NCBI GenBank assembly: GCA_002256025.1
Contig: NKIB01014749.1
Coordinates: forward strand, 1 to 41,036
DNA: 41,036 bases
Direction: 5' to 3'
Source of the DNA: Asterionella formosa
Lineage: Eukaryota
A model generated the notes under the pieces. The model saw only the letters and a list, made by a program, of their open reading frames with translations. It ran no database searches and had not been told where the DNA came from. Numbering within the stretch: position 1 is the first letter of the stretch; every line of letters begins with the position of its first letter. Positions 2,684 through 41,036 of the stretch are shown one piece after another. The position numbers and the translations under genes are program-made.

Positions 2684-3214
2684 CTTGGCTGGCAAAGTAT
2701 AATGTATTTGGAGGGACAAGGAAGGGAGATGTTTGCAATCGAAACAAAGCAATGGGCACAACGGAAAACGGATTGGAAGATTTTTTAAAAATAGAAGTAA
2801 AAGAGACAATCAACCAACCTTGAAAAATCAGATAATTTACTGGTAGTATCATCCAAGGAACAGCAGCCAATGAACCACGATGTCCACAACGCCACATGCG
2901 TAAAATTAGGACCATGATCAGCCATTGCACGACCGTGAGAGTACCGGTAGTACAGCACTTCCTAGCATTGATGGTTGTGAGGAGTGAAATCATAGGACGG
3001 AACTCCTCCTTGCTTCTCCACAAATCCTCGGCATTATGCATGGTAAATACCCTTCAGTACCGTTATTCTCGAGGAGAGTTTGACACAGTACCGGTATCAA
3101 GATTCCCTGATCCCGCCCTCCGTCGTTGTTGCTTGAAAGCGGGCAGAAAATGATGATGCATCTCCATACTATATATATCTACCACCCTGACAAACTAGTA
3201 AGTAAGTAATTCGT

Positions 3215-4232
3215 CATGGTCAAACCTCAGCATAAAACGCGAAAAAGTGTCACAGCAGAAAGGAACATGACCTTTTCGATATGCTCCTTATGTTTCGTCC
3301 GCCTTGTGGGAGCCTCTTCTCCATGAGCCAGATATATTACCAACTTTCCTTCTGAAACAAAGAACCACTTTTCATCTATATGGACCTGGTCATAGAAGCC
3401 ATCATATAATAACCAAACAGTCCCAGATCAAAATCAATGTCAGGGGAACAAGGATGTTCTTGATCTGGATGGTTCAATTGTAAATGATTAACACAAAACA
3501 TAAAACGACTTATCTTACCCTCCTCCGAAAGCATCGGCTTCACCACACTTGTGTGCGGTTGTATTACATTCTATCTGTTATCCTTTGCAATCCAAAAAAC
3601 TGTTGACTTGGGAAGGGCAAGAGCAGCTGCTAATTTCCATTACGTAGTACGCTTGCAATATGGAATATCTCTAATCGTTGTAATTATTTCTTCACGTGGG
3701 TATTTGTGAGTAATCCCCAGTCAATAATTTGCAGGAGAGCGATGCAAACACGAAAGTATCATCATTATAATAGGATTCGAGCGCGCGGTTCCAAATACAT
3801 TGTATAGTTGTTTTATCAACTTTGAACTGGCCCGCCAAAAATTTAACAGTTCCATGCACTAAAATTAGCCGACCATCTATTTCATCCCCTCCATCAGGTC
3901 CTTTTTGGAGGTTCTGTAAACCATAATCCAATACAAGTTGACGCTCTTCTGGTGTTAGATCCTTTCTCATATGCTTGTTAAGAAGAGGTGGCGACAAGAA
4001 AAAAGGGGGATCAGGCATCTACATTTCGCTCGAGATGAGCAAAAGTGGAAGTCGAAAAAGCCGAAAAACGTTTTTTTTCAAATGTAGTTGCCAATTTTAA
4101 TCTTTCTATATATATTATATATACATGGATCTGTAACTTAGAGCAAGCTGCACCATAGGGCTATTGAGCCGGAGAAAAAATGGCCCCGGATAAATTTGAA
4201 TTATCGATGCAACTGTTACTAGACAGAGGGAG
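3215..4232 (-). mobile_element. Degenerate, 3'-truncated plant-type (DD39D/Stowaway-partner) Tc1/mariner element
   Basis: TIR CTCCCTCTGT (reverse complement of 4223-4232) followed by TA at 4233-4234. Minus-strand transposase fragments: MRKDLTPEERQ...HGTVKFLAGQFKVDKTTIQCIWNRA (HTH), IPYCKRTT*WKLAAALALPKSTV...KPMLSEEGK, and VHIDEKWFF...KVMFLSAV (~3260-3390). Stops and frameshifts present; the remaining catalytic Ds and the second TIR are missing. Confidence 0.88.
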
Positions 4233-4234
4233 TA

Positions 4235-4989
4235 CCACTTAAAAAACTGAGAGTCAACGTTTCAGTACGTACTCCTTCTTTCGACTAAAATTATCGAAGT
4301 TTCTGAAATGATAAAATTCGAACCAAGTACAAACTTTCTAGTACCCTGTATATATTCTTTGCACAAAATATGTACCACGTGCGTCAAGAACACAGGTGAC
4401 TGACTCAATTGGCTGTACCTGGTACCAGGTACCGGTACAACAATGAGCCGAATCGTTAAATGCCAGCCTATCAGATCCCTTCAAAACGAGGTGGAAGAGA
4501 ATTGACGAAAACGAATTACTGTCAATGAATTGAAAATTCAAACAGACTCATAGAATGTCTTGAACAAAAAAATGCAAATGATACAAGTGAAAGAAGGATT
4601 GATATATTCAATTGCTAATTATCACACCAGAGTTGCTTGACTGAATAGTCAGTGAGTCCATCTATGGTAGCAGGAAGTAATTGGTACTTCAGTACTGGTG
4701 ATTCAAGGAAGAACCTTCATAGAGGATACAAACCCATGGGAACAAGTATGAAGCTTTAATATTTTCTTTGCTGAGTCCAGTAGTCTACAAACTGGACTAA
4801 TATCAAAATACACTATGGTGTTCTGGAGTTCCAGTATAATCATTTTTGGTTAGTACATAAATCGCTACAACATTGCTTGAATAATTTTGTTCATATCTAG
4901 CATATTTAGCCCAAAATGTGAATTTACTCGATTTAACGTTGACTCTCAGTTCAAAATCATCCAAACGTTGACCCTCAGTTTTTAGGTGG
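4235..4989. mobile_element. Non-autonomous TIR element (MITE, ~755 bp) with TA target-site duplication
   Basis: Left TIR CCACTTAAAAAACTGAGAGTCAACGTTT (4235-4262); right TIR AAACGTTGACCCTCAGTTTTTAGGTGG (4963-4989), 2 mismatches plus 1 indel. Extra subterminal copy AACGTTGACTCTCAGTT at ~4935-4951. TA on both flanks (4233-4234, 4990-4991). No coding capacity. Confidence 0.85.
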
Positions 4990-5203
4990 TACCTTCAATG
5001 CATGGGTAGACAATAGAAGACGAAGATCAGCAGCCAACGAACGAGAACAACTCGTGTTGAAACAGCCACAGTGCAAATCTTGACAATGAATGTCTCTGCT
5101 GACCATATCATGGAAGTCCAATGATTATGATTTCAATATTTAACAAGAATAACCCACATGTACCCTTGTCTAACTATTGTAAGGTCATCACTAGAGTTTC
5201 AAA

Positions 5204-6805
5204 CTACACAAGTTTGGGCGAACTTAGAAATGCATACCCAGCAGCCACTCCACCTTCGTCAGTTGTGACACTCTTGGCTCGCAAAATGTGTCCAACAGCC
5301 TTGTCTAGTATGGTTCGTCCACCATATTCTCGTAGTGTCACTCCAAAGACACCCAATTCACAAACACAATCGCCCTTGTACACCACTTCTCCCCCTCGAA
5401 CAAGTGATCCTTCTGTTGATGGAGGACAAATCTTTTCCATCAAAATGAATGCTCCTCGCTCGGCATGTGACATTTGCTTGAGGGCTTGCACTAGATCATC
5501 ATCGTAGAGATTATTTCCACCGCCTTCTCGTTGTGGCTTCAAGACGTATCCATGTGGATTTGCCAGTGCCATTTCAACCACTTGGGAATCATCTCCATCC
5601 CCCAATGCATACAGTCCTGCAAAACACGAGGAAAGAAGCTCTTCGTCTTCATTTGAGTCACAAAATTGACGAAGCACACCTTGTTGGGCTAGTGCCTGTT
5701 GTATCTTTTTGGCACCAACAATATGGTAAAACACATCTGGACATTTGATGGCGGCACTATGCTCGACAATGGCTCGACCAGCCCATTCCACATCAGATGG
5801 ATAATCATTGGGAGTGTACCCAGCTCTGTAATACACAACTCCAGCAACTACATCCGTGCCGTCGTCTCCTGTCAGATATAATTCTAGTCCATCCCACAAA
5901 CCTTGATGGGTGGCTGCAACTGCCAAGTCTTCAAGAGTTCGCCGTATCAATCGGACCCCATGTTCTTCTTTTAAAAGAAATTCCAAATCACGTTGATCAC
6001 AAGAATTGGTTTCCCCTGGTTGCACTACCATGACAACTAATGCATCAGTAGTAGTGGTATTAGTGTTGTCAGTGGCGGCGGATGTCAGTTGCAATGTACG
6101 TTGCCGATTGTATTCCTGCAAGGCTGTAGCAAGCCCATTAGCAATCCCTTGAGCCGCTCCATTGTCTGGTAAGTCATTTCTATCGTTTAAATGTTGAAGA
6201 TTTTGATGCATCTTTGTCACTTTGCTGGAGAGACAGCCAAAGGAGGATGCAATGGTGTTCAACTCAACTTGGAGTGGAATAGCAGTTTCAATGGAATCTG
6301 ATCCATGAAGCATATAGTCAGATCTTGAAAAACACAAATCCATCCATTGGTTAGAGCATGCTCTAGTTATGACTAGACACGAACATAAAATTTCAAGTTC
6401 TCCTCCAAACCAAACGTACCTCAATATCCCAAGAACTACCTTTTGTGCTCGTGGCTGTTGATTCCTAGCTTCTCTTGCCAAAACTTCTTGAGCCAGTTGC
6501 ACCAATCTGCCGGTAAAGTCTGAATCACCCTGAGCTGCAACTTGAATGGCAGAGAGTAGCCATTCTGTATCCGAAGCCACATTGTGCACCATGGAATTGA
6601 ATGGTTTGGCCATTTGGTACGCCAAGGCAAATGCTGATTTCGAAAACAGAGTCGGAAACAGAGAAAACGGCGCTGGTTCAAAGATGTACTTGCCCATCAG
6701 TGGTTCCTTGGTCAGACGATCACGAGCTCCCATTAAGATGCCATGGGAGGAACACCATGATGATGCTGTTTCGATGAGAGTGATGGTTTCAGCGGTCGTC
6801 GCCAT
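5204..6805 (-). CDS. GSS: Eukaryotic glutathione synthetase (exons 6805-6420 and 6323-5204; 96-nt intron 6324-6419)
   Basis: Motifs APFSLFPT, R-SDYM, QVELNTIASSF, YYRAGYTPNDY, KKIQQ.L, VLKPQREGGGNN, ELGVFG and EGGVAAG. Removing the GTACGT...CTAAC...TCAAG intron restores the conserved GILRSDYM. Confidence 0.95.
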   Translation of the reverse strand: MATTAETITLIETASSWCSSHGILMGARDRLTKEPLMGKYIFEPAPFSLFPTLFSKSAFALAYQMAKPFNSMVHNVASDTEWLLSAIQVAAQGDSDFTGRLVQLAQEVLAREARNQQPRAQKVVLGILRYVWFGGELEILCSCLVITRACSNQWMDLCFSRSDYMLHGSDSIETAIPLQVELNTIASSFGCLSSKVTKMHQNLQHLNDRNDLPDNGAAQGIANGLATALQEYNRQRTLQLTSAATDNTNTTTTDALVVMVVQPGETNSCDQRDLEFLLKEEHGVRLIRRTLEDLAVAATHQGLWDGLELYLTGDDGTDVVAGVVYYRAGYTPNDYPSDVEWAGRAIVEHSAAIKCPDVFYHIVGAKKIQQALAQQGVLRQFCDSNEDEELLSSCFAGLYALGDGDDSQVVEMALANPHGYVLKPQREGGGNNLYDDDLVQALKQMSHAERGAFILMEKICPPSTEGSLVRGGEVVYKGDCVCELGVFGVTLREYGGRTILDKAVGHILRAKSVTTDEGGVAAGYAFLSSPKLV

Positions 6806-7166
6806 GGTGTCTTGATTCTATGATTTTAATTTAAAAAAAAAATATCATCATCATTGTCCGTCGGCAGGGGGATTTAGTCTGCCGCTATTACTACATAGGA
6901 ATGCTATACGATGATGGAACTCCGTCGAACTCCAACGAACATGCATGTGTACATACCGGTACCTGGTACGGTAGGCACCTCTTGAGTTAGACCTAGGGCT
7001 ACATAGGGTTATTGTTACCGGTAGGATTAGAGTTGTATATTGCCATGGTTAGCAGCGCACTTCGTGCATTCTACCATTGCGCGCCATAAATTAAATACAT
7101 TTATTCATATATGAATATGATTTATGTAGATATCAAAACATAACAGGAAGTATCATTTAATTGACG

Positions 7167-8912
7167 ATGAACGCCCTCCAAGAACAAATCGATCAACTGA
7201 AGCAAGAACTGGAAGCCAAGGATGATTGTCTCTTTGAAGTGAGTGCGACACTCGCCGCTGTGCAATCGGAAACGCAGCACCGCTTGCAGGAACTGGAATT
7301 TGACGCGTCCAAGAGAATACGACAAAGTGAAGAAGCGCTTCGACGGGCTCAGCAAGAAGCCAATCAAGCCCATCATTCAGTGCTACAATTGCAACAGCAA
7401 CTGCAACTGCAACGTACCCTGCATGTTCCGCCATTAACCAAAGCTACTGCTGATACTGCTGCTGTTGCTACTGCAACTGCTGCCACCACCTCTGCTCTCA
7501 GTCAACCAACAGTTTCCAATTCTCCATTGGCTGGTCATTTACTCTTGCTGATGCCCACTATTACTACTGATAGGGATAATGTGTTTCACTTTTTACTACA
7601 GTCGCAACAAAAACCCCAGCAAAATCATCAGCATTTAGGTCTCACGGACTTGGAGGTTGTGTCATTTATCTTGGAATCAGAAACTCGTCACAGACAATGT
7701 GTTTGGATCCATGAGGCGCTTCGTTGGAGTACAATGTCGAGAGCCATTCTTCGAGAATCATGTGCTTTGCGGGATGATGCCACACCAACAGTAGCCAACA
7801 AGTCAAAGGCGTTGTCCTTGTCCTCCTCACGAATTATCCTTACAGGATCATCATTATTGAATGTCAACACTTCCATACAACAGGTTGAAACAGCCATGAG
7901 AGAGCCACTACTAGTAGTACGGGCCCAAAACAAACATATCAACACTAGGAATAATGATTCAATACACTACTACTACAACAAGAAAATTTGTCATCAATGG
8001 ATGGGACTCATGGTGGAGAATTTGGAATTTGACGTTTTGTTGACACTCTTCCAAGATGTTCCCAGCGTTCATTCCGATCATGTTGTATTGCCATGGTGGG
8101 AACTTTTCAAACCCGTGATTGTACATCATATTGCGCAGTTTTGTTGTTTGGATACAAAAAACATAACCACTCCCAACTCATCTAATCATCATCGCCGCCG
8201 TCATCGTCGGTATCATCCTCATCCTGACAATGGTGATGGTGGGAATACCAAGGAAAAAACAACAACAACAACACCACCACGACTAGCTGGGAAGGATGAC
8301 GCAGCCATGTTGTCAAATTCATTGGCATTGTTACGATTATGGTGGCATGCATCTCCCATCTTTCAAACGGAGCTTATGGAACATCATTATGCTCGATCAC
8401 TAATGGCCATTTTATTAGACATGTTGGAACAACAACAAGATCAGTCTCCAACATCAAAACATTGTTGTGTTGCCTTGGAATTTATTCAAACTCTCATGAC
8501 GCATAAAGCTGGAGTGCTTTTGTTACGAACTCAAATGGGAGGCCATCCATCGGGAATTCAAGTTTTGACTCTTACTTTGGCAAACCTTCAAATACAAGAG
8601 GAACAAAATAATGACAAGGACGATGAAAATGAAAATGATAATGGCACGAGCAAAAGTCTTCAACAACAAGTGTGCATTGTTCGAATCTTTTGGATGATTA
8701 TGAGATCCCACCAAGTTTATGACGATCCGATCCCATTTACATCGCTATTGGAAGAAAAACGATACCATTGGCTGGCATGTATGAATAAAATACTCATCAT
8801 GGAGGAAATGAAGATTGAGGATATCAAGTTGGTACAATCCATGTTGGAAGAAATTCAAATGGATCAAGAGGAATTAGAAGACTATCGACAACAAGAAATG
8901 TGTCAACAATAG
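7167..8912 (+). CDS. Hypothetical protein with N-terminal coiled coil and helical C-terminal region
   Basis: ~580-codon ORF with ATG at 7167; heptad-rich first ~85 aa; divergent from GSS across ~360 bp. No recognised catalytic motif. Confidence 0.75.
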   Translation: MNALQEQIDQLKQELEAKDDCLFEVSATLAAVQSETQHRLQELEFDASKRIRQSEEALRRAQQEANQAHHSVLQLQQQLQLQRTLHVPPLTKATADTAAVATATAATTSALSQPTVSNSPLAGHLLLLMPTITTDRDNVFHFLLQSQQKPQQNHQHLGLTDLEVVSFILESETRHRQCVWIHEALRWSTMSRAILRESCALRDDATPTVANKSKALSLSSSRIILTGSSLLNVNTSIQQVETAMREPLLVVRAQNKHINTRNNDSIHYYYNKKICHQWMGLMVENLEFDVLLTLFQDVPSVHSDHVVLPWWELFKPVIVHHIAQFCCLDTKNITTPNSSNHHRRRHRRYHPHPDNGDGGNTKEKTTTTTPPRLAGKDDAAMLSNSLALLRLWWHASPIFQTELMEHHYARSLMAILLDMLEQQQDQSPTSKHCCVALEFIQTLMTHKAGVLLLRTQMGGHPSGIQVLTLTLANLQIQEEQNNDKDDENENDNGTSKSLQQQVCIVRIFWMIMRSHQVYDDPIPFTSLLEEKRYHWLACMNKILIMEEMKIEDIKLVQSMLEEIQMDQEELEDYRQQEMCQQ

Positions 8913-9074
8913 AACTAAGGTTATAGTTGTAGACAATATGGAATATCTTTTTTGATTTTGGGCATGCAGAAATGATCAACCCTGCGCGTTTACAGAGTGC
9001 CGAATAGTACTGCAGAGAGGCAGCCAATTGTTTCCACTTTTACTGTCGTGGCTTAATGTCGATGATTTCCACAT

Positions 9075-11567
9075 TCACCTTCCAAAAGCCAAATCGCGCA
9101 ACTCGTTAGCTTTCTTCTTCTTTTTTTTGCCATCTTTGGATCCTTCCTGTTGAAGCTGAGCAGCCTGCTTGATTTGTTTCTGCTCCTTCGCCATGGCCTT
9201 GGTGGCAGTTCCAACTGACGCTCCTTGATTTGCCGCAGCAACAGCAACACTTCCTTTGGCCGAAGCAACAAGCAAGGTTGTTGAACTAGCGCCACTAGCC
9301 CAGGCACTTGGTTTCTTACTACCCGACAGGCTGGGATACAACTTGCTGCGAGCTACCGATGGAACGGTGACGCCACCATAGTGGACCTTGCTAGCAGCCG
9401 AAGGAGGTGCGTGCCAATTCGCCGCCGAAGATACGGATTCAGCAGTCCTGGTGGCTGTCTTGACGGTTGCTGGTGGAACAGACCCCCAACTTGATTCTGA
9501 TACCTTGACTATTGTCGACTGATTAGATGTACGAAGTTGATCCATGTACCGGAGAGCGCGATTAGCATTCGCTTCATTGGGGCAGCTCATCAAAAGAGTG
9601 GGAACAAACGTCCAAAAGTCGTTATCACCATATCCATTCTCGAATAGACTTGCCGCATGGTCTACATATGCGTCGGGAGCAATCGCGTCAACTGCAAATT
9701 CCTTGGTTAGATTTTTGAGTTCCTTGTATCTTGTAGGTCCAAGCTTGGCCTTTAATTTGTCCACTGTCCCTGCTCCGTTCGACATGGACTTGGTTGGGAG
9801 TGGAGGTGGGAAATTCATATGATTCATCGCAGGTGGAGCGACTTTGGTGCCTCCAAGTACTTTTTGCCTTGCAGAAGTATTGACATTCGAAGTTGGCGGA
9901 GGTGGGAAATTGGAGGTATTCATAGCTGGTGCATGTTTCTTCGCGGCCAACTGCTGTGCTGCCTTGTATGGTTTCGGAGCAGAACTACTTGGCGCTTCCA
10001 GAGATGGAAAATTATCGGAAGCCAGATTGGATCGTGAGTTGGACGCCATTGATGATGCTAGTGCTGCTGTAGGTTTGTGGGAGGGAACGGATAAGGGTTG
10101 ATTAGAAATTGTCACAGAGGCTTGATTCCAGTTGGCACTTGTACTAGTTGCAGAAGCATTCAATTTTCGACTGCCAGAGACCGCACCAGATTTGATTTTC
10201 GTGGCATGACTCTTCTTGATCGAAGGGAGGGAAGGATATTGTTCTTGGGTGTTTGCTTGAATGCCAGGCATCCTGGCCACTCTGGAAGTTATTCCATTGC
10301 TGGTCCATCCCATTCGAAATTGTCCATCTGTCTGCATAGTAGACTGAGCCAAAGTTGGAAATGACTCCACTTCGGCTTCCAATTGTTGTCGAATCTCCTG
10401 GGCTTGTGCTCTCAGTTCTGCTGTTCGTAGTAAATGTTGTGGATGTGATGATTCCGCGGATGGTTCTCGTGGCTGCGGGAGTGATTGCGGAACAAAGGCT
10501 TGGCCGTCGACACCAAATCCAAAGTCTTGGTCTGTTGGGAGTGATTGATGGTCGTAACCACTTCCATCGTATCCCTCCCGCCTCACTCTAAATTCTAAAT
10601 TAATTTTGGTCGATCCCCCCGACACTCCATGTGTGGACATGGAATGATGTCTGAGATCCAATTCATTCTCATATACCATGAATCGTGCAGCCAAACACTG
10701 TGGGTCTTTACATAGAAAGTGTCTTTTTTCAAAGTGTTGTTCCAATGTGGTGTAGTTTCTAAAGAACTGATTGTCCAATCCCTGTTTTTCACAAACATGA
10801 CATTTGTAATGGTCCTTTCGTAAATGCAAATGCAATTGAGTCAAATCATAAAATCGTTTTGGGCGACAGAATTCACAAAGTGGATGTCCAGAAAATCCTG
10901 ACGAAATGCCATCACCAGTTTGACAATGAGTTTTAAGTTGAGTTGGAGAAAATCTTGGCAACTTGGCAACAAAGTCTCGTTTGAATTCAATGCATATTTC
11001 ACATAGGGTTTGTCGATGTTTGTTGCGAAGGTGGTCTTGTAGTGCACTGAGGGGCGTGACTTTTTTCTTTTTTTGCTGTTGCTGTTGTTGCTTTGGATTC
11101 ATAGCAGTAGGTACTACTACATCGTCATCTGGAGCAGTTCCATCATATTCCTTACAGGAAGTACATGCATATCCAAAGAGAGGTAAAATGTCTTGTTCGT
11201 AATGTTCCCTGGGAAAGAACATCCCCACATCTTCCTTGTACACAAAATTAGCACCTAATTCATTGCCCCACATGGGGTAGTCTTTAAATTGTTTTGAATC
11301 ATAAAAGGAGTCATCATCGACAATAAGCTGTTCATTCACATGTTTGCACATTGGACATGCTCGATCGGTGTGTAAATATCGCAATCGTAAATGACAGGTC
11401 CCGCATATCTCGTTATGTCCACAAGGTGCCTTAGCAGGATGTGTTAAATCAGAATAACACACGAGGCATGGATGATGATGATGATTGTTTTTGTTGTTGT
11501 TCTTGTTGGTACTACTGTTGTTGATTGTATTGTTTTTGTTAGTGTTGGTTTCGTCAAGCAACGTCAT
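9075..11567 (-). CDS. ZNF598: ZNF598/Hel2-type RING and C2H2 E3 ubiquitin ligase (ribosome quality control)
   Basis: N-terminal RING (CLVC...CGH..ICGTC.LRLR......CPMC), then C2H2 fingers with GHPLCEFC, HYKCHVC, FFRNY..LEQHF...HFLC...C and repeated FPSL/FPTL motifs in a low-complexity C-terminus. Confidence 0.92.
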   Translation of the reverse strand: MTLLDETNTNKNNTINNSSTNKNNNKNNHHHHPCLVCYSDLTHPAKAPCGHNEICGTCHLRLRYLHTDRACPMCKHVNEQLIVDDDSFYDSKQFKDYPMWGNELGANFVYKEDVGMFFPREHYEQDILPLFGYACTSCKEYDGTAPDDDVVVPTAMNPKQQQQQQKKKKVTPLSALQDHLRNKHRQTLCEICIEFKRDFVAKLPRFSPTQLKTHCQTGDGISSGFSGHPLCEFCRPKRFYDLTQLHLHLRKDHYKCHVCEKQGLDNQFFRNYTTLEQHFEKRHFLCKDPQCLAARFMVYENELDLRHHSMSTHGVSGGSTKINLEFRVRREGYDGSGYDHQSLPTDQDFGFGVDGQAFVPQSLPQPREPSAESSHPQHLLRTAELRAQAQEIRQQLEAEVESFPTLAQSTMQTDGQFRMGWTSNGITSRVARMPGIQANTQEQYPSLPSIKKSHATKIKSGAVSGSRKLNASATSTSANWNQASVTISNQPLSVPSHKPTAALASSMASNSRSNLASDNFPSLEAPSSSAPKPYKAAQQLAAKKHAPAMNTSNFPPPPTSNVNTSARQKVLGGTKVAPPAMNHMNFPPPLPTKSMSNGAGTVDKLKAKLGPTRYKELKNLTKEFAVDAIAPDAYVDHAASLFENGYGDNDFWTFVPTLLMSCPNEANANRALRYMDQLRTSNQSTIVKVSESSWGSVPPATVKTATRTAESVSSAANWHAPPSAASKVHYGGVTVPSVARSKLYPSLSGSKKPSAWASGASSTTLLVASAKGSVAVAAANQGASVGTATKAMAKEQKQIKQAAQLQQEGSKDGKKKKKKANELRDLAFGR

Positions 11568-23630: not shown

Positions 23631-23689
23631 GTTAGATCTAATGGAAATTTTATTCACAAACAGATTCAGAAGAAGTGATGCTACTCAAG

Positions 23690-25513: not shown

Positions 25514-25524
25514 TTGTATACGAT

Positions 25525-29031: not shown

Positions 29032-30025
29032 AAATTAGTAATTGTTTTTAGATGTAATGTACCACAAATAAATCCTGTTGAATGCAATTTACAATCCAAC
29101 TTGTTTGGCCTGCCTTGCTTGAACCAATATATCACCAAGTGGATACATAACTCACCATCAATGGATTTCAGTATAGATCAATGTACACAAATCTTCAATG
29201 CAATGAATGGAATTTAATTATAATTTGATTGACCTTCTTGCAATCAGAATTGTATTACTTGTTCATAACGTAGCATTCATTGTCTGGCGAGGTACCCTGG
29301 TACCATACGTCACATGTATACCGTAGACTATATATACCGGTAGAAGTATACACCGAATTATGATATATTTAGAAGGAAGAAGCAAGCAAAAGAGCGACAT
29401 TCAAAAATAATCCGACTCTTTCGACTCACAGGCCTTGAATGATAGATTCTTCTTCATCAATTCTGACTAACCCCTGGTACCAGGTACCTGGTACCGATAC
29501 AAATGGTACAGGATACCTGGTTACCACAGTACATACCAGTAGCTACAGCACCAGGTACCCTGGACCTGGTACTCGTATCTGGCGTTTACAATTTTGGCTC
29601 TATTGATGCACCGGTATCCTATGTACGTGTGCGTTCGGTACAGGTACACGGGTATACCCGCGAGCAAGGCGAGCTCCTCGAAATTTGCTTGTTTTGTTAT
29701 TTACATCAAACAAGTGCGCACGAAAAGGATTCTTTCTGATTCACTCTTCGTTGTGTTCTATTGAAATACACTACGTATCATAACAGCCGTGCCCTTTCTA
29801 TTGAACCAGATTATAGCTGGCAATAGTCTGCCACATCTGTACTGAGTCAGCCATGTCACAGTAGATGCGACTGATTCATCGTCCCCATGAGCTACATAGC
29901 AACGATTGCTGAGCAAATAATTATAACAAGGATATATGCACCGATATAACGAAGGAGCACAGTGTGCTCACAAAAGATCTCAGAACAAGAGCTAATCACA
30001 AAACATCCAAAGCAAGAAAATCATC

Positions 30026-30745
30026 ATGAAGGTTTCTGTTTCCGTTCTCGCTTTCGCCTCTGTGGCTTCCGCTCTCGCTCCTACTCCTTCCAAAACTGCC
30101 CTCCGCATGGCGGAAAGTGGCATGGACATGAAAAGCTACCCAAGTATCAACGGATGGATCGCAGATTCGTCTAAGTTTTGTGCTGGCCTTCCTGGATCTG
30201 TTGCTCCCTTGGGCAACTTTGATCCATGGGGTCTTGTGTCGGACATGTCTGTTCAAGAAATTAAGAGATATCGTGAGTCTGAAGTCACTCACGGCCGTGT
30301 TGCCATGTTGGCTACTTTGGGATACCTTGTCGGTGAAAGCTTTCACCCCTTCTTTGGAGGTATTGTTTCAGGACCTGCTAACTCTCACTTGACCCAAGTG
30401 CAAGAAGTGGCACCTGCCTTCTTCACTCTCCTTACCATTGCCATTGGTGCTTCCGAATTATACCGTGCCAAGACCGGGTGGAAGACAGCACAATCGTTGC
30501 AAAAGGCAATTGACGATCCAAACAATGCTCTTGGAGCTGTTCTTAATGACGATTACTATCCAGGTGATATTGGATTTGACCCACTTGGTCTCAAACCCAA
30601 GGATGCCAAAGGATTTGCCATTCGTCAAACGAAGGAACTGAACAACGGCCGACTTGCCATGCTTGGAGCTGCTGGTATGATTGTTCAGGAACAAATCACG
30701 CATGAAACCATTTTTGAAACTCTCCAATCCATGGGATTGTTTTAA
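30026..30745 (+). CDS. LHCX: Fucoxanthin-chlorophyll light-harvesting protein, Lhcx/LI818 clade
   Basis: Signal plus transit peptide (ASA-LAP); GLPG...PLGNFDP.G, RYRESEVTHGRVAMLA, GPANSHLTQV, E.YRA..GW, YYPGDIGFDPLGLKP and TKELNNGRLAMLG. Confidence 0.92.
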   Translation: MKVSVSVLAFASVASALAPTPSKTALRMAESGMDMKSYPSINGWIADSSKFCAGLPGSVAPLGNFDPWGLVSDMSVQEIKRYRESEVTHGRVAMLATLGYLVGESFHPFFGGIVSGPANSHLTQVQEVAPAFFTLLTIAIGASELYRAKTGWKTAQSLQKAIDDPNNALGAVLNDDYYPGDIGFDPLGLKPKDAKGFAIRQTKELNNGRLAMLGAAGMIVQEQITHETIFETLQSMGLF

Positions 30746-31069
30746 GATAGGCACTTATTGCGATGGTAGGTACATTTATTTAGAGTATACATGCAAACAC
30801 ACACACATACACTGAACATCACTCCTGGAACAGAGCGCAGAGATCTAAAAATATAATTCATGACATTCCATTAACATTTGCAGTCGTTTTGACCTGATAA
30901 GCACCACAAAGAGTCGAGTTTGTTCGCAACACCAACATGACAGGAAAAGATTTGGAGTTATTGCAGTATAATGGAGAGGGAAATGAAAATTCGTATTTTA
31001 AACAGGAATTGTTAAGCCTTTGGTTATTTTATGAGCAATCACTTTACAAGCAGTACCCCTAGCTTTTTT

Positions 31070-32431
31070 TTACAAAGACTCTTTCTTCCAAAAATCTGAT
31101 GGTTTCAATGCATTGGCCAGACACGCCATGACAATCAAGGTCCCCCCAACATAATCATTCATCCCAAAAGATTCATGCAATAAAATAGAAGCAAAGAGTG
31201 CTGCCCACAATGGTTCTGTTGATAGAATGACTGAAGCTTCACTCGATGGGACTTTGCCCAATGCCGTAATTTCAATAAAATAATTGATCGAGGTGGAAAC
31301 AATCCCAGTCCAAACTACTGCTGCCGCAACTTGTGACAAGGATGGTTCAAAGAATAAATTAGGGAGTGTCATAACTTCATATCCTGGCTGTTGCATCCAC
31401 CCATCAGCAAAGCACCATAGCATACTAAAAAACGATGTCGTTGCAATGAGCGTAGCTGTAATGGGAAGAGCTTGATTGGGTTGACTGTGCATCATCTTTT
31501 CAGATAGAAATACGGCTGTTCCAAATCCAATGGCTTGTACGAGCGCCAATACATCTCCAGTCCCCATGGATATTGTAGGGCCGATGCTAGAAGTAGTAGT
31601 AGTAGTAGTCCCATCACCTCCAGCAAGCTCCAGAATTCCCACACCACTCAAACACAAGACTGCTGCCAACCATGTTTGTGGTGCTTCCTTCCATCCCAAG
31701 GGTTTGCCATCCACCAACCATTCCAAGAATGGACACCAAAGGACAGTTGCTGTTCCTAAGAAAGAAACAGTAGCAGGACTGGTATCTAACAATGCCAGAG
31801 ATTGTGAAATATACCCCAAGGAAGTGAAGCACCCACATAGCACCGCCTTTTGTCGAATGGTCGGATCTAATTTGACCAATTGTGGTGACAACACCAGGGC
31901 TGCCAATACCATTCGTGCACATGTTGCTGCGGATGCTGGGAGTGATTCCTCCATGAGACTTCCCAATGGAAAGTTCGTGCCATAGATGCATGCCACGGCA
32001 GCTAAAACAAGACGAGGGCCAATGTAGGAAGATAGAATTCCGTCTATTGTAAATGACTCTGAAAATAATGGCTGATGTGTTTGGATACCGGTGTCCTCTT
32101 GCTGCAATGATTGTTCTAAATCGGGAGTAGCTTCTGTCATGGTTATTGTGCTACCATCATCGTTATTGTTGTTGTCTGCTATCATTCTGAACGGATGGTT
32201 GCTGTACTTGTTGGTTAGACAAGGTATTGGACGAGTTGAGAATGATGATGATGACGGTACTGAAGGAGGCGATTGTCTCGTTCGCAAGCGCATCATGTTG
32301 ATGGGCTGCTGGGGTGTAAGCGGCTGAAAGGCATGACAATGGCACGATAGGAACACCATCAGCAGTAAGGAGGAGAAGTGGGGTAAAGGAATCGTCATCG
32401 GCATGTTTGTCGAGGTGTTCAATGAAATCAT
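31070..32431 (-). CDS. EamA/DMT-family transporter with predicted bipartite plastid-targeting presequence (start may be 32404)
   Basis: Signal peptide ending CHA-FQP, then a Ser/Arg-rich transit peptide. About 10 TMs with YGTNF, LGYISQS.AL, GD.LAL.QA.GFG and EASVILSTEPLWAALFA. Confidence 0.9.
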   Translation of the reverse strand: MISLNTSTNMPMTIPLPHFSSLLLMVFLSCHCHAFQPLTPQQPINMMRLRTRQSPPSVPSSSSFSTRPIPCLTNKYSNHPFRMIADNNNNDDGSTITMTEATPDLEQSLQQEDTGIQTHQPLFSESFTIDGILSSYIGPRLVLAAVACIYGTNFPLGSLMEESLPASAATCARMVLAALVLSPQLVKLDPTIRQKAVLCGCFTSLGYISQSLALLDTSPATVSFLGTATVLWCPFLEWLVDGKPLGWKEAPQTWLAAVLCLSGVGILELAGGDGTTTTTTSSIGPTISMGTGDVLALVQAIGFGTAVFLSEKMMHSQPNQALPITATLIATTSFFSMLWCFADGWMQQPGYEVMTLPNLFFEPSLSQVAAAVVWTGIVSTSINYFIEITALGKVPSSEASVILSTEPLWAALFASILLHESFGMNDYVGGTLIVMACLANALKPSDFWKKESL

Positions 32432-33082
32432 CAGGAATGGCTCCCGTGGTACGGCAGTACGGTAATAATGGATTTGATGTTGTATTTGTGGTCATGAACG
32501 TGATCCATTGGTACATTGCATGTATTTAATTACTGAAATGATATATATATATATGTATATATGTACAGAAATAAAATGATAATACAAAATGTGCTCGGAG
32601 TATACATCGTTGCAACGACAACCGGTATACTGATAGGAGTTGAACTTCAACAGAATTCTATGAACTAAGATACCGGTACATTGTAAAACTGAGTACAAAA
32701 TATGGTTCATACGTCAGATTGTTCGCTGTGATGAGGATCCGCGCAGGCTGTATTTCCTCATCATTCTGTCGTGACACCACGAATGATTTCGTTTTGTTCC
32801 TTCCCTGCTGTTCTTGTTCTATTTAATGGATAGTAAAGTACTTACTACAAAAGCTCGACCAGGGTAGGGTACCCTGGTTACCAGCTACCGGTAGTACCGG
32901 TATCATGTTTCTGTCACCATGGTTGCGCGCCTCGATCTAACACGGTTTGTGGTGGTTGAAACCGACATCGACATGATACCATCCTTTCGGTAAACTATTT
33001 ATATAATATATACCGGTAGTATGGTATAGAAGCAGAAACAGTCCGCCCCCTGAGACGAAAGGTTCAAGCCACTCCTGTTTCT

Positions 33083-35267
33083 TTGCCATTGTTACAGCAA
33101 CCAGTAGAACATCCTACCACTAGTAGCATTTCAACAAGGGCAGCAGCTGCAACGACTGATGCTGATTCTTCATCATTGTCCATCCTTTCCAATCGACAAA
33201 AGCGTGTCAGAAAGTTGTCTCATCCGTCCTTGTCTTTCCTTCAGCACAATGGTGCCATTACTATACAGCTACTACTACTTATAACAATACTCATAGTCCT
33301 TTTCATGTATCAAGGAAAATGGCGGACATTTCCAAATAAATCCATTTATAACAAGCTATTGGGAATCCCCAAGGTCCGTCAATTACTGAAGAGGCTCCAG
33401 CTCCACACAATGGACGATATGTTTTACCCATGGCAGCAACTACAATCACATCAAAAACAATATCATCAAAAATCACCAGCCATTTCATATTGCCTTGGGG
33501 AAATCACATGACTCTGCGGAATTTGCATACTCCTTATTGCCTTGTTGAAACTCCCATTTTCTGTGCCTATCATTCCTTGTGCAAACATCAAGACTCACAA
33601 TATCAATAATCACAACCATTGGTGGCACATGGATATTATCAATGCCATTAAAAAACTATGTATGACTTTAATTTCAAAGAACCGTTGAACGCACCAAGTT
33701 GGTGGTATGGGATTGCACTAGATTGGGTATTTGCACCAACCAAAGTGGCATTGCAGAGATTGGTGGTTGGCAAATCAACAAATCATGATCATGAACCAAA
33801 ACATTATTTACGATGGGATAATTTGGGAAAATATGCTAGAACCAAACGTCAGCTGAAAAAATTTCTAAGGAATCTTGTCAATGAAGATGATACTACCATT
33901 GTATCACAGTTTCATGTATTTCATACAACAAGTTTATTTTTTGACATGTCACAACAACAACGACAAAATGGACAACCATTGCCAATTTGTCATGAATTGT
34001 ACCATGGTCATCGATTGTTTCATAAACTGACACACAGATTATTAATGGATGCTGCCATGGAAGCTGGCAAATGCTTGGTTGCCACTGCGACTGTTGATGC
34101 TATTAATAAAAAATGGTGGACATACCACAATCGAATAGCAGTGCAATGATTCGTCATTACAATGAAAATGGTGGGGAAATCAATACCAATTCTATTTATT
34201 ACATCACATCTCCAACATCATGTTGGTGCTACGTATTCCGTGGCATGCTTGTATACTGAATGGCTAAATGATGAATTGAAACTTGCCATGCAACAAAATT
34301 TCAACTACCTGTTGGATACATTTGTTCATGACGACTGCCCCATTCCACATACCACGACTACTGCAAAATGTGGATGGGATCGTAGTACTCCTATATCAAC
34401 GACATTAGATGTATCAACTGTTGGTACAAATGCAGTATCAATAAAATTCCATGGTGGAATATTATCACGCCATTGGAAATGATCAATATATTAAAACTGC
34501 CATTTCCATTGCACAATGGATACATGGAATACAACGAGATGATGGAAGCTTTGTTCAAAAAGTCATTATGGACCCTGCCACCAAAGAAGACGACGATGTC
34601 ACCAATTCATGTCAAGGACAAGTGTCCTTTGCATTGGCGAGACTGTATCATGTACTGGTAGACAAGAATTCGCATAATTTGGTTCAAAAGAAGGAAGAGT
34701 GGTTGCTGAAAGGGGCACGACGAGCTGCTGCCTATATCGTTGCATCGTATTCTGACATGTCTGATGAAGATGTTCCAATAATGGACGAATGGGTCATGAG
34801 TGCAATAGGTGAACTCTATTCCATATTGGGAGGCAACATTGGCACGGCAATGATAGATCATGCCACGAGGATTGTCCAGTTGGCGGCAAATTCACAAACA
34901 ACGTATATTGGACATGGTGAAGACATGGACAAACTAGGAATTTACAATGGACATTCGTCAGCCACTGTTACAACCAAAGTAACGGAAGGTCTATGTGCTG
35001 TCTACAGTTTGGCATTGAATATGAAACTGGTAGATGATGCTTGTACCATTGAACGAGTAACAACCTTGTCACAACGGTACCAACTGCAATCTCAATATCG
35101 ACCCGAACAAGCCATGTAATATGAAGGACTCTGACCGTGTTTAAGTTGGGTTTCGTGGAGGTGTGGAAAATTGGGAAATGAAGACTTTTGATACACTACA
35201 TAATTTGAACAGTATACTGTGTATGGCGAGATTGGTAAAAGAAATGGAAGTGTCATGGACAGAATGA
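33083..35267 (+). pseudogene. Disrupted paralog of the 686-2683 gene
   Basis: Collinear matches across at least 5 frame segments: TM, WYGIALDW, FHVFHTTSLFFD, LYHGHRLF...L.MDAA.EAG, HVGATYSVACLY, QRDDGSFVQK, GQVSFALARL, TK.TEGLCAVY, YQLQSQYRPE, then MKDSDRV*VGF...HNLNSILCM ending TGA at 35265-35267. Several frameshifts and in-frame stops. Confidence 0.88.
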
Positions 35268-35475
35268 TTGGTATAAAATAAACTGTAAATGATATAGATC
35301 TCATGGCACCAATTCATCAGCCCTATTATTATATGATAGGGCACTACATATTAGTTGCTCTTATGTCAACTTTTCGGTTTCAGAATTTTTGTCAACAGGA
35401 AACGAAAAACCAAACATTGTTGATTCTGTAGTTGTTTCTGCATGTTGTATAAAATTTTCAAGCCGCGGTTTGTGG

Positions 35476-36705
35476 TTATTGCCCAAGGGTCAATGGCAGA
35501 CAGTGCATCCCAAAGTCCTTCTCAATAATATCTATAGCTCTCAATTGATCTTTTTGACTCTTCGCAATGAATTGTGCACTACCATCTCCTTGTGATCCCA
35601 CTCCCTTGCCCCCGTACACATGGGGTTGTAAGGCCGGATGTTGCAATACCTTGTGAAGGACAGGTGACGTAAGATGTGTCGGTGACGCTGGCATGGCATA
35701 GGTATCAAATTGATCTTGTGCCAATGTCATGAGCTCTCCCACAACCTTTGGGTTCCCTTGCTGCAATGCTGCAAGTGCTCGTTTCATAATATCATGATTG
35801 ATGGGACCCAGCAATTGATGGACACCTCGATGAATATCAGTCGTGGGGATAGGATATGCCATTTGCAAGTCACGTAAGATAGCTGGTGTATTCTTGACAG
35901 ACGCAAGGTCCACCATGAGTAAATGAATAGGTGCACCAAGGATAATATCCTCAACCACATGTAAATCATTGCCATTAAATTCCATGACAATTGGCTTCCC
36001 GGCACCGTAGGCGCACCCTTGATCCATTCGTCCACATTTTGAGGGTGTCGTTGTTTCTCCCAAGTATGCAAACTCCATTTCTTGACGTTTTGTGAAATTT
36101 AATCCATAGCATTGACTATATGCTCTGGCCGTAAGGACACAAATGGCAGCTGATGATGATAGACCCTTCTTGACAGGAAGTGTAGTTTTGTAATTATTGA
36201 TAACAATGCCCCCCACCGATGGATATACGTTCCTGATTTGATATGCCACACCAGCAATGTAGCTAAAGAGTGATGTACTCGTAGCTTCACTAAGGAGGTC
36301 ATTAATATCCAATTCCAACTTGGACGTTTCATTGGCATCATTGTTACTATTATGATGATGATGATGATGATTGTTAGTATTAGTAATGTTAGTATTGGTA
36401 TGGACATGAGCTCCACAACCAACACCAACATCATTACAACTGTGATTGAGTGTACATGTCAATACAAGCTTATCAGGATGGGCTCGAACCTTGGCAAACA
36501 GACCTTGGTTGGTTCCAGCAATAAGACACAGCCCAGTGGGAATGTCCTCTACCTGATGATTGGAGGCACAGGCGCTACTAGGACGCCGATACATTCCTGC
36601 CCAATCACTGTGTTCACCAAACAAACAAATACGACCAGGAACGAATATTTCATATTCGATAGCATTGGTACTGGACGCATCCATGGCAATCATAGGAATC
36701 GTCAT
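35476..36705 (-). CDS. GHMP-family kinase (galactokinase/sugar kinase-like)
   Basis: FVPGRICLFGEHSDW, ATP-binding LPVKKGLSSSAA, CGRMDQ and GGKGVGSQGDG; contains an Asn/His low-complexity insert. Confidence 0.9.
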   Translation of the reverse strand: MTIPMIAMDASSTNAIEYEIFVPGRICLFGEHSDWAGMYRRPSSACASNHQVEDIPTGLCLIAGTNQGLFAKVRAHPDKLVLTCTLNHSCNDVGVGCGAHVHTNTNITNTNNHHHHHHNSNNDANETSKLELDINDLLSEATSTSLFSYIAGVAYQIRNVYPSVGGIVINNYKTTLPVKKGLSSSAAICVLTARAYSQCYGLNFTKRQEMEFAYLGETTTPSKCGRMDQGCAYGAGKPIVMEFNGNDLHVVEDIILGAPIHLLMVDLASVKNTPAILRDLQMAYPIPTTDIHRGVHQLLGPINHDIMKRALAALQQGNPKVVGELMTLAQDQFDTYAMPASPTHLTSPVLHKVLQHPALQPHVYGGKGVGSQGDGSAQFIAKSQKDQLRAIDIIEKDFGMHCLPLTLGQ

Positions 36706-37898
36706 GATCGATATTGTTTACTGCACTCAACTGCAAAACAACAACACTTTTTTCATAAAATATTTGTGATAAATTTGATAAAATGCCGGCCGTCATTTTG
36801 GTTACTTCTTCGCCGTCGGTTTTGGGCGTTTTTTTACGGATAATGGACATGCGGCTATTTTTTGAACCAAGCTCTATGTACTGTCAGTTTGGGAATATAT
36901 ATTGTGTACACAAATACCATTGAAAAACCGGCATATACCGGTAGGTATAGGTTACATAAACAAACATACAGGTACCGTCGTTTATCATGGGGAAAGGATT
37001 GCGCGTTTGATTCACTTTAATAAATAGGTGGCTACCGGTATACATATACAATGTGTATTTGCCAGAGGTTGTATCCAATAGACCAGGTCATTCTGATACA
37101 GGAACTGATTTGAGGGCACAAATACGGTATACAGGATATTTTATGTACTTCTAACATTTTAGGAATATCCCTGTTGAGATGTTCCAGATCTCCTTGATAG
37201 TACTTACACATCCAGTGCCCAGTACTAGTTCTCCATTAGCTAGTAGTTCAACAACACTTTAATCTGCTTTTAGATTTGCCTTTTTCAATGTTGTGATTAC
37301 TTCAGATTGATTTTTCTATCCATCTTGCCAAATTACTTGATCTTACCAAATTGATCTTGCTTCATGAATCTTACTTTCTTGCACTTGCTCTTCACCTCAA
37401 TCCACACTTTCTGATTGGTCGATTTTGTAAAATTCTTAATTCCAATTGTTTATCTTGAACATCCCCCAACCCCTCCCTATTTTGTAAATGTTGACAACAA
37501 ACTGCCAACCAACCCCAACACTAACAAGAGCATGCACAGCCCTACATGAGTACCAGTATATTTAATCATCACCACACATTTTGTGCAGTATTGGACCAGA
37601 TTTACGTATTTGTAATAAATTCATATTTTATGTATAGGTATATTCATAACAAAGTGAAATGTGCAAATTTTCAATGGAATTGAATGGTCAAGTTGAGTTG
37701 ATGCTGGTTTTATTGATTGGAGAAATGTTTGCATTCATCATTCAAGACTATGTTAGGGTTTGGGAATCACCATCATCATGTCCATGGCAAAACCACTGAC
37801 TGATGGATTGCACATTCATTATAGCATGTTAAATTACACATCCTTACCATCCAATTGTACCATAGTACCAAGTTTAAGCATCATAAATAGTAAATGCA

Positions 37899-39488
37899 CT
37901 AGGATGAAATCTTATTCCACACACCCACAGCATCTAAAATCTGTTCCGGTTGAGTTGCACCCATTATCACCTTGTCAATTGAATTCTCCTTGAACAAAAA
38001 CTCCAATGCAAATTCTTGCAACTTGACATTTGATGGTATATCATGTTCACTGTTCTGAAGCATCTTTCTAGTTCGTGTAGCAAGTGCATGTCGGATGGTC
38101 CAACCATGAGCTGCAAAGAAATTGGACAAAATATGAGTACTTGGTTCATCCAATTCTTCAAAGGTACCAAATAAGGCAGGAATCACGACATTCATGACAT
38201 GTTCTTCATATGCACTAAAGCTGATCACATTGGCAATCTCTGCATCCAATTCATGAAGCAAGGATTGAAGATATTTTGCTCCCTCCAAGGTTTCAGCTTC
38301 TTCATCTGTAAGGTTGCGTTCTTGCTTGGCTTCTAACAAGGCTTCACCATCAAAGTGAGACAAGGCAATGTTGAGCACTTTCTGGTAAAATGGAGGAGGA
38401 CCTGCCATTAGATGTGTCCAATCTTGTTGATCAGGTCCCTGAGGTAAACAATAATCTAACAAGGAAATGCTTTGTCCTGTCCCGGTTCCAAAGTCAGGAT
38501 AGTATGTCAGTGGTCTCATGGCATAAAGTTGAATATGAGGTCGAATTGCCTTTACAGCTCGTGCTACTTGGATTCCACGCACTTCCATAACATTGATAGG
38601 CAATTGAAGGATGGAAAGCGACGATTGCTCCAACCCCAGTTCCTTCGCAGCTCGATCTGCCGCATTTAATACAACTGTCACATCCAAATGCAAAGGATGG
38701 TCTTTGGGAAGAGCAAGTCCATTGCTAACTACTCCAAAGGAAGGGATCCTGTTGTTGGATTGTTTCACGATTTCCTCAAGTCCACAAAAGGCTTCTGTAA
38801 GTCGATCGGCTGTACTATTGCCATGGACTTCTGGGTTGTGCACCATTGGTATTAGTTGAATGTGTGGGTTATTAGCAAGCAGTTGTGTGGTCGATGAGGA
38901 GGAGTCTGCTATTTGATGCATGTGGGAAACGCTTAGATTGTGGACCACTTGTTGGGTCGTAGTAGTAGTAGTAGTATCAGTTTCTCCTTTTGTTTGCAGT
39001 TCTTCTAGAAGCAAATCACCCGATATTCGTTGGTTACAGTTAGTACTAGTAGCGGTACTACTGGGAGTACTGGTAGTATCATCACTGCTGGTTTCAATGG
39101 TCCGGTATCCCACTCGTTGCAAAACAGTGATTGGACCATTCTCAGGATCACCAATGACGACATTCGCAAGATCTGTCGTGTTGGGACATTCAATGGTAGT
39201 AACTCCATGATCTACAGCTGTTTGAACGACCAATGAATATTGATTTGGCAACATGCGAGCATATTTGTGTGCACCAAGTCCAAGTTTGATATTATCCTTG
39301 TTACAACTGTACGATGTGCTGTTGCTGTTGCTGCGCCATTGTTGTTGATGTTGATAATGATCATGATGATGATGATGGATGCTTAGGACTCTACTTATTA
39401 CGGAGATGCTGGAGGAGGAGGATTGGATGCGCCCAAGCTTATTACAGGTACGAACAATAGTGGCGGCGGTGAGCGCCATTTTCATCAT
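37899..39488 (-). CDS. Divergent aldo/keto-reductase-fold protein with probable mitochondrial targeting peptide
   Basis: KLGLG, A.DHGVTTI, MVHNPE, AFCGLEE.V...RI.SFGVVSN, LQLPIN.ME, MRPL and VIMGATQPEQI.D; Arg/Ser-rich N-terminus. Confidence 0.72.
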   Translation of the reverse strand: MMKMALTAATIVRTCNKLGRIQSSSSSISVISRVLSIHHHHHDHYQHQQQWRSNSNSTSYSCNKDNIKLGLGAHKYARMLPNQYSLVVQTAVDHGVTTIECPNTTDLANVVIGDPENGPITVLQRVGYRTIETSSDDTTSTPSSTATSTNCNQRISGDLLLEELQTKGETDTTTTTTTQQVVHNLSVSHMHQIADSSSSTTQLLANNPHIQLIPMVHNPEVHGNSTADRLTEAFCGLEEIVKQSNNRIPSFGVVSNGLALPKDHPLHLDVTVVLNAADRAAKELGLEQSSLSILQLPINVMEVRGIQVARAVKAIRPHIQLYAMRPLTYYPDFGTGTGQSISLLDYCLPQGPDQQDWTHLMAGPPPFYQKVLNIALSHFDGEALLEAKQERNLTDEEAETLEGAKYLQSLLHELDAEIANVISFSAYEEHVMNVVIPALFGTFEELDEPSTHILSNFFAAHGWTIRHALATRTRKMLQNSEHDIPSNVKLQEFALEFLFKENSIDKVIMGATQPEQILDAVGVWNKISS

Positions 39489-41036
39489 TGCTGAAGTGGT
39501 GAGCTTTATTATACAAACACCCCATCAATAATCGACATATTTACGTAACTAATAAATATGAATTACCCTATGTAATAGTCTGTATCAGAATAAATATAAA
39601 AATGATGCGGTGAAATACAACTGGTAACGGTACCAGGTAGCTATGTACCGGTACATACATATGCAGGTTATACGAAAACTCCGTATAAACAAATAAATAA
39701 CAAGCTTCATCGGCTTGTTTTCCTGATATGACAAACCGTCTTCTAAAACACACCTTGCTTTTGTCGTATATAGCATCTAAGCAACAATGAAAAACAAACT
39801 GACGACTGCAAATGATGTGTCGCATCCCTGTCAGGCGGGGGATGGATGTCTTGTTGCAGGTTGATTCATACATAAGCATCAGCACTTTACATCGTGATAA
39901 TATCTGCATATGATGCTCCATTCATGCGCCGTACGAACCATACCGGCGCAGCCACCAGATTAGGTACATGCGTGAGTGCTAACAATGATGTACTTGGAAC
40001 AGCAATAGAATAGTCATAATATTGTAGTTCACCTTTATTCACGACAAGGTTCCCCTCAACAGAACTACCGGTACAATATCTGTTCTCTCATCTACAACGC
40101 CGATTACTGGTACAGCCGCCACACAAAAAACGCTAGTCAAATATGATCACCCAAATTAATTATTTGGGTGGCCCAATATGACGAATTTAGCTACGTACCG
40201 GTACATAATTTAAGGGTATGACATCACAAAAAAATATGATGCATCATACAATATATATGGACGGAGTGAACTAAAATAGTTTCGACAACTTCCATAATTA
40301 TTTTAGAAACCCACATAATTTTTGGGGCCAACTGACAATATTTTCTGGCGACACGAAGAAAAATTTGTTCAGTAATAATCTCTATAATACGGTACTTTTC
40401 TCGACAATTCGCAACATTTCCGTTCACAAATATTCTTCACTCTGACTATCATTAATTCTGTTAGTTTGCTCCCATTTTATCTTTACTTTGATCACATTAA
40501 TACCTCAAGGTTAAACAAATATATATGCTAGTCAAACAAATAATTATGTGTAACCAATTCACTTTTTCAATTTCATTCTACAATCGCAAAATCAATCAAA
40601 TTAATCGCTTCGCTATATAGTAGTTTATATTGATACTTTCTATAGAACGTGATTCTCAAACCAATACGACAAGCAATGGATGTTCATTCTTGCAGCTGGA
40701 TGCTGTAACGACTCACAAGATTGCCTGGCTACTCATACTTGCAGGAGTCCCTGTTGCTAGTATCGGTAGATCAATTCATAGCAAATGAGCCGGCTGCTCA
40801 TTCTCATTGCTCAGATTGATTGTCTGCTGTAGAAACAAGAGGGCAACAGCATTTGCAGAGTGAGTTGATGAGATAGCAAAAGTTGCGAAGCCATGATTTC
40901 GGTTCTGTGTGCTCCTTACCATGTTCCCCAATGTCCAACCCAGCCCTCATCAAATTGATTGTCTGCAATCAGTGAACAACGGTCGCAGAGTGAGTTCATG
41001 GACGAACAATTTTTACAAAGGCATCGTTCTTGTTGT

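Follow-up and report, generated by a model that had tools for sequence, protein, structure and literature searches.

A TA-flanked palindrome upstream of diatom genes arises by insertion at TA and is a probable excision scar of a Tc1/mariner-type transposon

Background

Why would a single 8-letter palindrome, TACCGGTA, stand 19 times in 41 kb of diatom DNA, each time outside the coding sequences and mostly a short way upstream of a start codon? The question is raised by a contig of Asterionella formosa (NKIB01014749.1, assembly GCA_002256025.1), whose positions 1 to 41,036 on the forward strand make up the whole stretch analysed here and are referred to as the window. An earlier note on this DNA had proposed that the palindromes are excision footprints, left in promoters by a transposon that targets TA. 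We find that mutation of TA to TA-CCGG-TA has really taken place in this lineage, repeatedly and in recent times, and on balance we favour the view that TACCGGTA is the excision scar of a Tc1/mariner-type transposon, consisting of the TA duplication and a constant core of 4 nucleotides (nt).

Results

The palindrome TACCGGTA occurs 19 times in the window, at exactly the positions listed in the earlier note and nowhere else. Dinucleotide shuffling gave an expectation of 0.19 occurrences (standard deviation 0.44, maximum 2), and none of 100 shuffles reached 19; an order-2 Markov model predicts 0.23 for the noncoding DNA, in which all 19 are found, and across methods the expected number ranges from 0.19 to 0.24. 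Chance or base composition as the source of these words is ruled out by these expectations. For such counts the window was divided into about 20.2 kb of long, high-scoring open reading frames (ORFs) and a remainder of about 20.8 kb, and ORFs were also the basis of the gene models and start codons from which every distance to an ATG is measured. All copies of TACCGGTA lie in DNA of low coding potential, that at 2942 inside an ORF of 203 amino acids (aa) which itself scores as noncoding. No fewer than 17 of the 19 are situated within 750 nt upstream of an ATG, a zone that accounts for 41% of the noncoding DNA, and the gene-poor stretch of 5.6 kb from 21500 to 27100 contains none. The earlier statements that the word is far above chance, is absent from coding sequences and lies mostly upstream of start codons are therefore borne out.

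The same holds for the variants that had been reported to occur alongside it. TACCWGGTA is present nine times against 0.25-0.32 expected, five times as TACCAGGTA and four times as TACCTGGTA, with A or T at the centre in all nine cases; cores of 6 nt are present three times, once each as TACCCTGGTA, TACCAGGGTA and TACCCCGGTA, and TACGGTA is present five times. The frequency depends steeply on the spacer between TACC and GGTA, with 19 occurrences at spacer 0, nine at spacer 1 and three at spacer 2, and there is no enrichment at spacers 3, 4, 5 and 6 (0, 1, 0 and 2 occurrences against about 0.3 expected for each). When all words of the form TA-X-TA are ranked without bias, TACCGGTA comes first and TACCAGGTA/TACCTGGTA third, and TACC(N0-2)GGTA, at a density of about one per 0.7 kb of noncoding DNA, is the top over-represented intergenic word. 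Variants of TACCGGTA with one mismatch number 22 against about 6 expected, and their 24 kinds together barely outnumber the exact copies. Since the flanks of the 19 exact sites are mutually unrelated, we are dealing with a short word and not with a repeat family.

Among the 22 one-mismatch variants, seven read TACTGGTA or TACCAGTA (at 2838, 13362, 29534, 34653, 37551, 39068 and 40105) and correspond to the scar after a C-to-T change at its central CpG; those at 34653 and 39068 are located in coding DNA. They may reflect CpG decay of old scars, or else be scars of an element with CCAG tips.

How does such a word come into being? Direct evidence comes from the right-hand end of the window, where positions 40088-41036 (plus strand) are occupied by the 5' portion of a mobile element, a dispersed repeat of no assigned class, and where contig depth rises to 500-11000 as compared to about 5-40 in single-copy DNA. 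Metagenome contigs were scanned with both flanks of the TACCGGTA at 40196-40203, with 0-8 letters allowed between them to let filled and empty sites both match, and this recovered five loci (L001-L005), all five of which are empty and contain TA only. The loci are copies of the dispersed repeat that are 93-96% identical to the window copy and whose 5' end corresponds to window position 40088/9, and the flanks of the repeat differ in every copy. The copies can thus be used as a ruler for the ancestral state, by which the TACCGGTA at 40196 is the product of a 6-bp insertion at a TA of the repeat. Copy L003 carries a CCGGTA insertion of its own that creates TACCGGTA at a different TA and is absent from all four other copies; no other indel of at least 4 nt separates L003 from L004, which share 99.4% identity over 2121 nt. 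In the alignments of both 40196 and L003 the flanks offer no source for the inserted CCGG, which is therefore not the product of local duplication or hairpin repair. Although they had not been selected for the motif, the five loci carry three TACCGGTA in 10.4 kb.

A further site was revealed by contigs of four public runs (X2, X3, X7 and X14), which were aligned to window positions 21100-41036. The 12 best-supported indels include two omissions of 6 letters, at 40066 and 40195, which correspond to both TACCGGTA of that region. The omission at 40066, where the palindrome (40066-40073) lies within a high-copy repeat, is carried by 3, 7, 5 and 5 contigs of X2, X3, X7 and X14, respectively, and that at 40195 by 4, 7, 2 and 1 contigs of the four runs; each leaves a single TA. 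The earlier note had predicted that, if the words are footprints, comparison would reveal clean insertions of CC(N)GGTA where the ancestor had one TA. This agrees with the 6-bp insertions seen at 40196 (five of five copies), in L003 (four of four) and at 40066 (contigs of the four runs). Evolution by substitution would not produce a site in this manner.

The repeat family shows a second palindromic type of insertion, from TA to TAGCTA with a gain of 4 bp, which was found twice, namely at about 771-774 of L001, in this copy only, and at about 1174-1177 of L003, where it is shared with L004 (about 1180-1183; alignment A2, columns ~598-601 and end). In the window TAGCTA is also found at 39638-39643, between two scars. 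It was rejected as a second scar type of the window, where the word is not enriched (6 against 3.1 expected).

Comparison of the window with itself found no second copy of the repeats at 39.7-41 kb, and a collection of viral contigs contained no copy of the dispersed repeat. The ORFs that abut the repeat in L001 (1-199) and L003 (2123-2542) have no match in Pfam; we take them to resemble the RNase H/C-terminal part of copia-type polyproteins, which suggests that mobile elements are nested here.

Discussion

What would place the same four letters between two TAs again and again? Duplication of TA is a hallmark of the Tc1/mariner superfamily, and its transposases cut the non-transferred strand a few nt inside the element, whereby these letters are left at the donor site and end-joined to a scar (PMC8151067). 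From this we infer a transposon as the agent of the insertions. The element would insert at a TA and duplicate it, and on its exit the letters of its ends, presumably CC... on one side and ...GG on the other, would remain between both TAs while end-joining seals the break. A palindromic CCGG tip being its own reverse complement, both overhangs would pair without mismatch and yield scars of a single form, which we propose as the reason why one exact 8-mer dominates. With tips of CCAGG the paired overhangs would have a mismatch at the centre, and CCWGG would result; CCWGG, CCCTGG and CGG could represent other repair outcomes or scars of sister elements, whereas chains would result from new insertions into the TAs of old scars. 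Scar length indeed varies as expected from end processing (CCGG 19, CCWGG 9, cores of 6 nt 3, CGG 5). We also count in favour of excision footprints that enrichment is seen for cores of 4, 5 and 6 nt and ceases with longer spacers, and that the word distribution is sharp, with 19 exact copies as compared to 22 with one mismatch. Finally, TACCGGTATA occurs seven times where 0.05 are expected, which suggests that the insertion targets were often TATA, and a preference of the element for such TATA-like targets may help to explain the bias towards promoters.

A lead to a transposase comes from L002, in which the dispersed repeat interrupts an ORF (164-835, minus strand) belonging to a large multi-copy family whose proteins are about 900 aa long (P0121-P0240). 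This family has 287 matches, the named ones of which are hypothetical proteins of a freshwater diatom, and it is multi-copy in diatom-bearing metagenomes. Its neighbours in a protein atlas carry DDE_1 (clusters at a score of 0.96), and the predicted catalytic domain in a structural model of one member best matches the catalytic-domain entries of the Mos1, Metnase/SETMAR and Sleeping Beauty transposases (Z 8.0-9.1, root mean square deviation 4.1-5.2 over 181-195 residues), with retroviral integrases ranking lower (Z at most 7.2). On the basis of the model, the family is a candidate for a new transposase family of diatoms. A sequence profile search of the Protein Data Bank returned nothing, and in the collection of viral contigs no relative was confirmed among 73 pattern matches.

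Several points weigh against the excision of a transposon as the origin of the scars. Empty sites were observed for the 6-bp class only, and all three lie in repeats rather than in single-copy promoters; the 7- and 8-bp variants, with CCWGG and cores of 6 nt, yielded none. At both 40066 and 40195 about one third of the contig depth shows no gap, which means that the filled state is common to many repeat copies and not unique to the locus, and it was probably inherited by a repeat subfamily. One column of the repeat alignment sets L003 and L004 apart from the other copies by a substitution between TACCGGTA and TATCGGTA, and therefore not every copy needs an insertion. A palindromic overhang of 4-5 nt is an assumption on our part, the known staggers in the Tc1/mariner superfamily being a few nt, and proximity to promoters and palindromy would be equally expected of a binding site for a transcription factor. 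As to the donor, an inverted-repeat search of the window found no TA-flanked element with CC..GG ends and inverted repeats, and when the window was scanned for TACC...GGTA pairs with matching inner ends only the motif chains matched each other. The footprint interpretation of the earlier note is thus partly supported, namely with respect to the insertional origin, which is observed at three sites; a CC..GG-ended, TA-flanked element does not occur in the window, where 31 scars face no resident element copy in 41 kb, and the targeting of open chromatin and the rewriting of promoter function are proposals of that note. The family of about 900 aa is a weak lead to this donor, with no tie to CC..GG ends or to the organism of the window. 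Its model has a mean predicted local distance difference test score (pLDDT) of 64, the Foldseek E value is 0.067 at best, a Z of about 9 is barely above the level that unrelated models reach according to the note of the tool itself, and Pfam gave nothing meaningful for the flank ORFs and 12 members of the family.

Could the palindrome then be the target of a dimeric transcription factor with GGTA as its half-site, kept in promoters by selection? Insertions might be one origin of such sites, or scars might have been co-opted as sites, which makes this explanation partly compatible with footprints. It would account for the perfect palindromy of the 8-mer, for the location of 17 of its 19 copies close upstream of a start and its absence from 21500-27100, as far as ORF-based models define promoters, for its clustering in divergent promoters, for the single substitution by which one TACCGGTA differs from TATCGGTA in the repeat family, and for the enrichment of one-mismatch variants (22 against about 6). 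However, selection does not predict the origin of three sites through insertion of exactly 6 bp at TA, in two cases within mobile-element DNA. In addition, exact copies that nearly equal all 24 kinds of one-mismatch variant summed form what seems a sharper distribution than factor sites usually show, a very flexible dimer would be needed for cores of 4, 5 and 6 nt, and full-text literature on the core in combination with diatom promoters contained, among the matches listed, no paper on such a motif in diatoms. Grainyhead/CP2 factors recognize sites with an ACCGGT core, which resemble TACCGGTA in being palindromes with a CCGG centre in regulatory DNA, but these are flanked by AA/TT instead of TA, and insertional birth is not a property of a factor site. 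We therefore consider it unlikely that selection for a factor site accounts for the palindromes.

Alternatively, CCGG may be written between duplicated TAs by a sequence-specific process that does without a transposon, such as a domesticated transposase or a TA-cutting nuclease combined with a fixed filler. In keeping with this, the insertions are real and uniform, 41 kb with 31 scars hold no donor, and the repeat family has twice acquired the second palindromic type, TAGCTA. Yet we know of no transposon-free process of this kind, none appears in the full-text literature on diatom excision footprints, in which only another superfamily, Kolobok, is found, and the absent donor weighs little when a low-copy active element may leave many scars in the course of time, so that this explanation strikes us as quite improbable. 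Least credible by far is an expansion of GGTACC(W) units as short tandem repeats by replication slippage, for although the chains can be read as GGTACC units with spacers of 0-1 nt and GGTACC is in excess in noncoding DNA (17 against 4.2 expected), it is already contradicted by the solitary position of most exact sites, by the chain neighbours, none of which are identical among seven adjacent units, as fits independent events, and by the observed insertions, each a lone unit added to a plain TA that had no earlier copy next to it.

Excision of a Tc1/mariner-type transposon, then, remains our preferred explanation, and it has parallels among known elements. Minos, a member of the Tc1 family, is said to have been found by Arca et al. 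in 1997 to leave a 6-bp footprint of four end letters plus TA, and the net gain of 6 bp at 40196, at 40066 and in L003, made up of four element letters and TA, is of the same kind. Minos reportedly differs in that its 4-nt ends are unlike each other and give two forms of scar, whereas the palindromic CCGG end assumed here gives one. The scar of Sleeping Beauty likewise consists of a duplicated TA around a few constant letters and is heterogeneous in length (PMC8151067), but its core is CAG where that of the window is CCGG or CCWGG. Whereas Sleeping Beauty integrates close to randomly, according to the same review, the words in the window are concentrated upstream of genes; they are moreover the top over-represented intergenic word, and no donor element was found for them in the window. 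For Stowaway miniature inverted-repeat transposable elements, insertions and excisions have been traced on a phylogeny in Triticeae (PMC1925063), and both cases concern natural targeting of TA with gain and loss read from sequence comparison. Unlike the element of the window, of which scars alone are seen, Stowaway is itself present in some Triticeae taxa.

In full-text literature, mostly without subscription papers, we found no paper on such scars or on TACCGGTA as a diatom motif. The matches to TACCGGTA alone appear, among those listed, unrelated to the motif, and none of the literature on diatom cis-regulatory palindromes was relevant. Nor did that on diatom mariner-like elements with terminal inverted repeats contain anything on the ends of diatom elements, and a search combining diatoms with DNA-transposon terms gave no diatom paper among the matches listed. 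Excision footprints at TA are textbook knowledge for single loci. The type of event is thus known, whereas its scale and place, that is, its density, its rank as top intergenic word and its location mostly upstream of genes, in a diatom, were not found described.

If the palindromes are indeed excision scars, one scar would be the dominant intergenic word and stand mainly in promoters, which differs from the scars at single loci of the textbooks, and a cut-and-paste element would be able to remodel regulatory DNA on a large scale with almost no copies of it left. Each scar would add a ready-made palindrome of 8 bp. Tentatively, and with more reserve than for the scars as such, we suggest that a mariner-like element with palindromic CCGG/CCWGG tips may have moved in and out of the promoters of this lineage very often, leaving scars on TATA-like targets and on each other, seeding factor sites and reshaping core promoters genome-wide without staying itself. 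Motif discovery in diatom promoters would return TACCGGTA as a top "cis-element" although it is foremost a mutational signature. The presence or absence of a scar could also be used to mark strains of a freshwater diatom that is widespread; the stretch was met in runs of 15 studies.

Sites and other features of the window

The DNA of the window is nuclear and stems from an intron-poor, photosynthetic stramenopile, in all likelihood a diatom of fresh water. Its products include a chlorophyll a/b-type light-harvesting protein, a eukaryotic glutathione synthase, a GlcNAc transferase, an EamA transporter and a GHMP kinase, and the closest named relatives of the glutathione synthase are from diatoms (55-63% identity). 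The runs in which the stretch is present come from 15 studies and are labelled freshwater or algae metagenomes. The GC content of the window is 37-47%, and a search of the window against Rfam found no RNA family.

Two isolated TACCGGTA at 2942-2949 and 3089-3096 are located 259 and 406 nt upstream of ATG 2683 of a minus-strand gene. A chain at 4416-4437 reads TA-CCTGG-TA-CCAGG-TA-CCGG-TA. Both the chain TA-CCGG-TA-CCTGG-TA-CGG-TA (6954-6973) and an isolated TACCGGTA (7016-7023) lie in the divergent promoter, 361 nt long, that separates the glutathione synthase gene (5204-6805, minus strand) from the gene at 7167-8912. Between two convergent genes there is an isolated TACCAGGTA at 15306-15314, and between convergent ORFs an isolated TACCGGTA at 19472-19479, one of the two exact sites that lie more than 750 nt from a modelled start. 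The cluster at 21323-21463 is composed of TACCAGGTA at 21323, TACCGGTA at 21352, TACCCCGGTA at 21384 and the chain TA-CCTGG-TA-CCAGGG-TA at 21447-21463.

Further to the right, TACCGGTA at 27193 and 27257 (27193-27264) precede ATG 27474 by 281 and 217 nt. TACCCTGGTA at 29293 and TACCGGTA at 29335, followed by the chain TA-CCAGG-TA-CCTGG-TA at 29478-29493, lie upstream of the light-harvesting protein gene (30026-30745); this chain and the other three had been described by the earlier note exactly as they are. Four TACCGGTA, at 32671, 32886, 32895 and 33011 (32671-33018), share the divergent promoter of the EamA transporter gene (31070-32431, minus strand) and a gene that begins at 33658. Two more, at 36936 and 37033 (36936-37040), precede the GHMP-kinase gene (35476-36705, minus strand) by 231 and 328 nt, and TACCAGGTA, TAGCTA and TACCGGTA follow one another at 39631-39653, 158 nt upstream of ATG 39488. 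Not used as evidence were a contig of run X7 of 423 nt that covers 36772-37200, differing in 2 letters and with 6 gap letters, and run contigs over 28797-29495 with 28 gap letters, the positions of these differences being unplaced.

The region 20800-27400 is gene-poor and of lower GC content (37-39%), shows many loose contig ends and holds TACCGGTA only at both of its edges. Its depth in the runs is about 2 to more than 100 times that of single-copy DNA, and it is probably decayed mobile-element DNA. At 28067-28826 three tandem units of about 257 bp, with 97.6-98.8% identity and no scar words inside, lie partly in the 3' end of the gene at 27474-28295 and partly downstream of it. Finally, many contigs, mostly of run X7, link 31610 to 38956 with few variable letters in between (31585-31610 and 38955-38981), and depth bins at these two positions reach about 147-149 in X7 only. 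This junction looks like a low-complexity or repeat stretch shared by two coding regions, or like sequence of another organism, rather than a real deletion of 7.3 kb.

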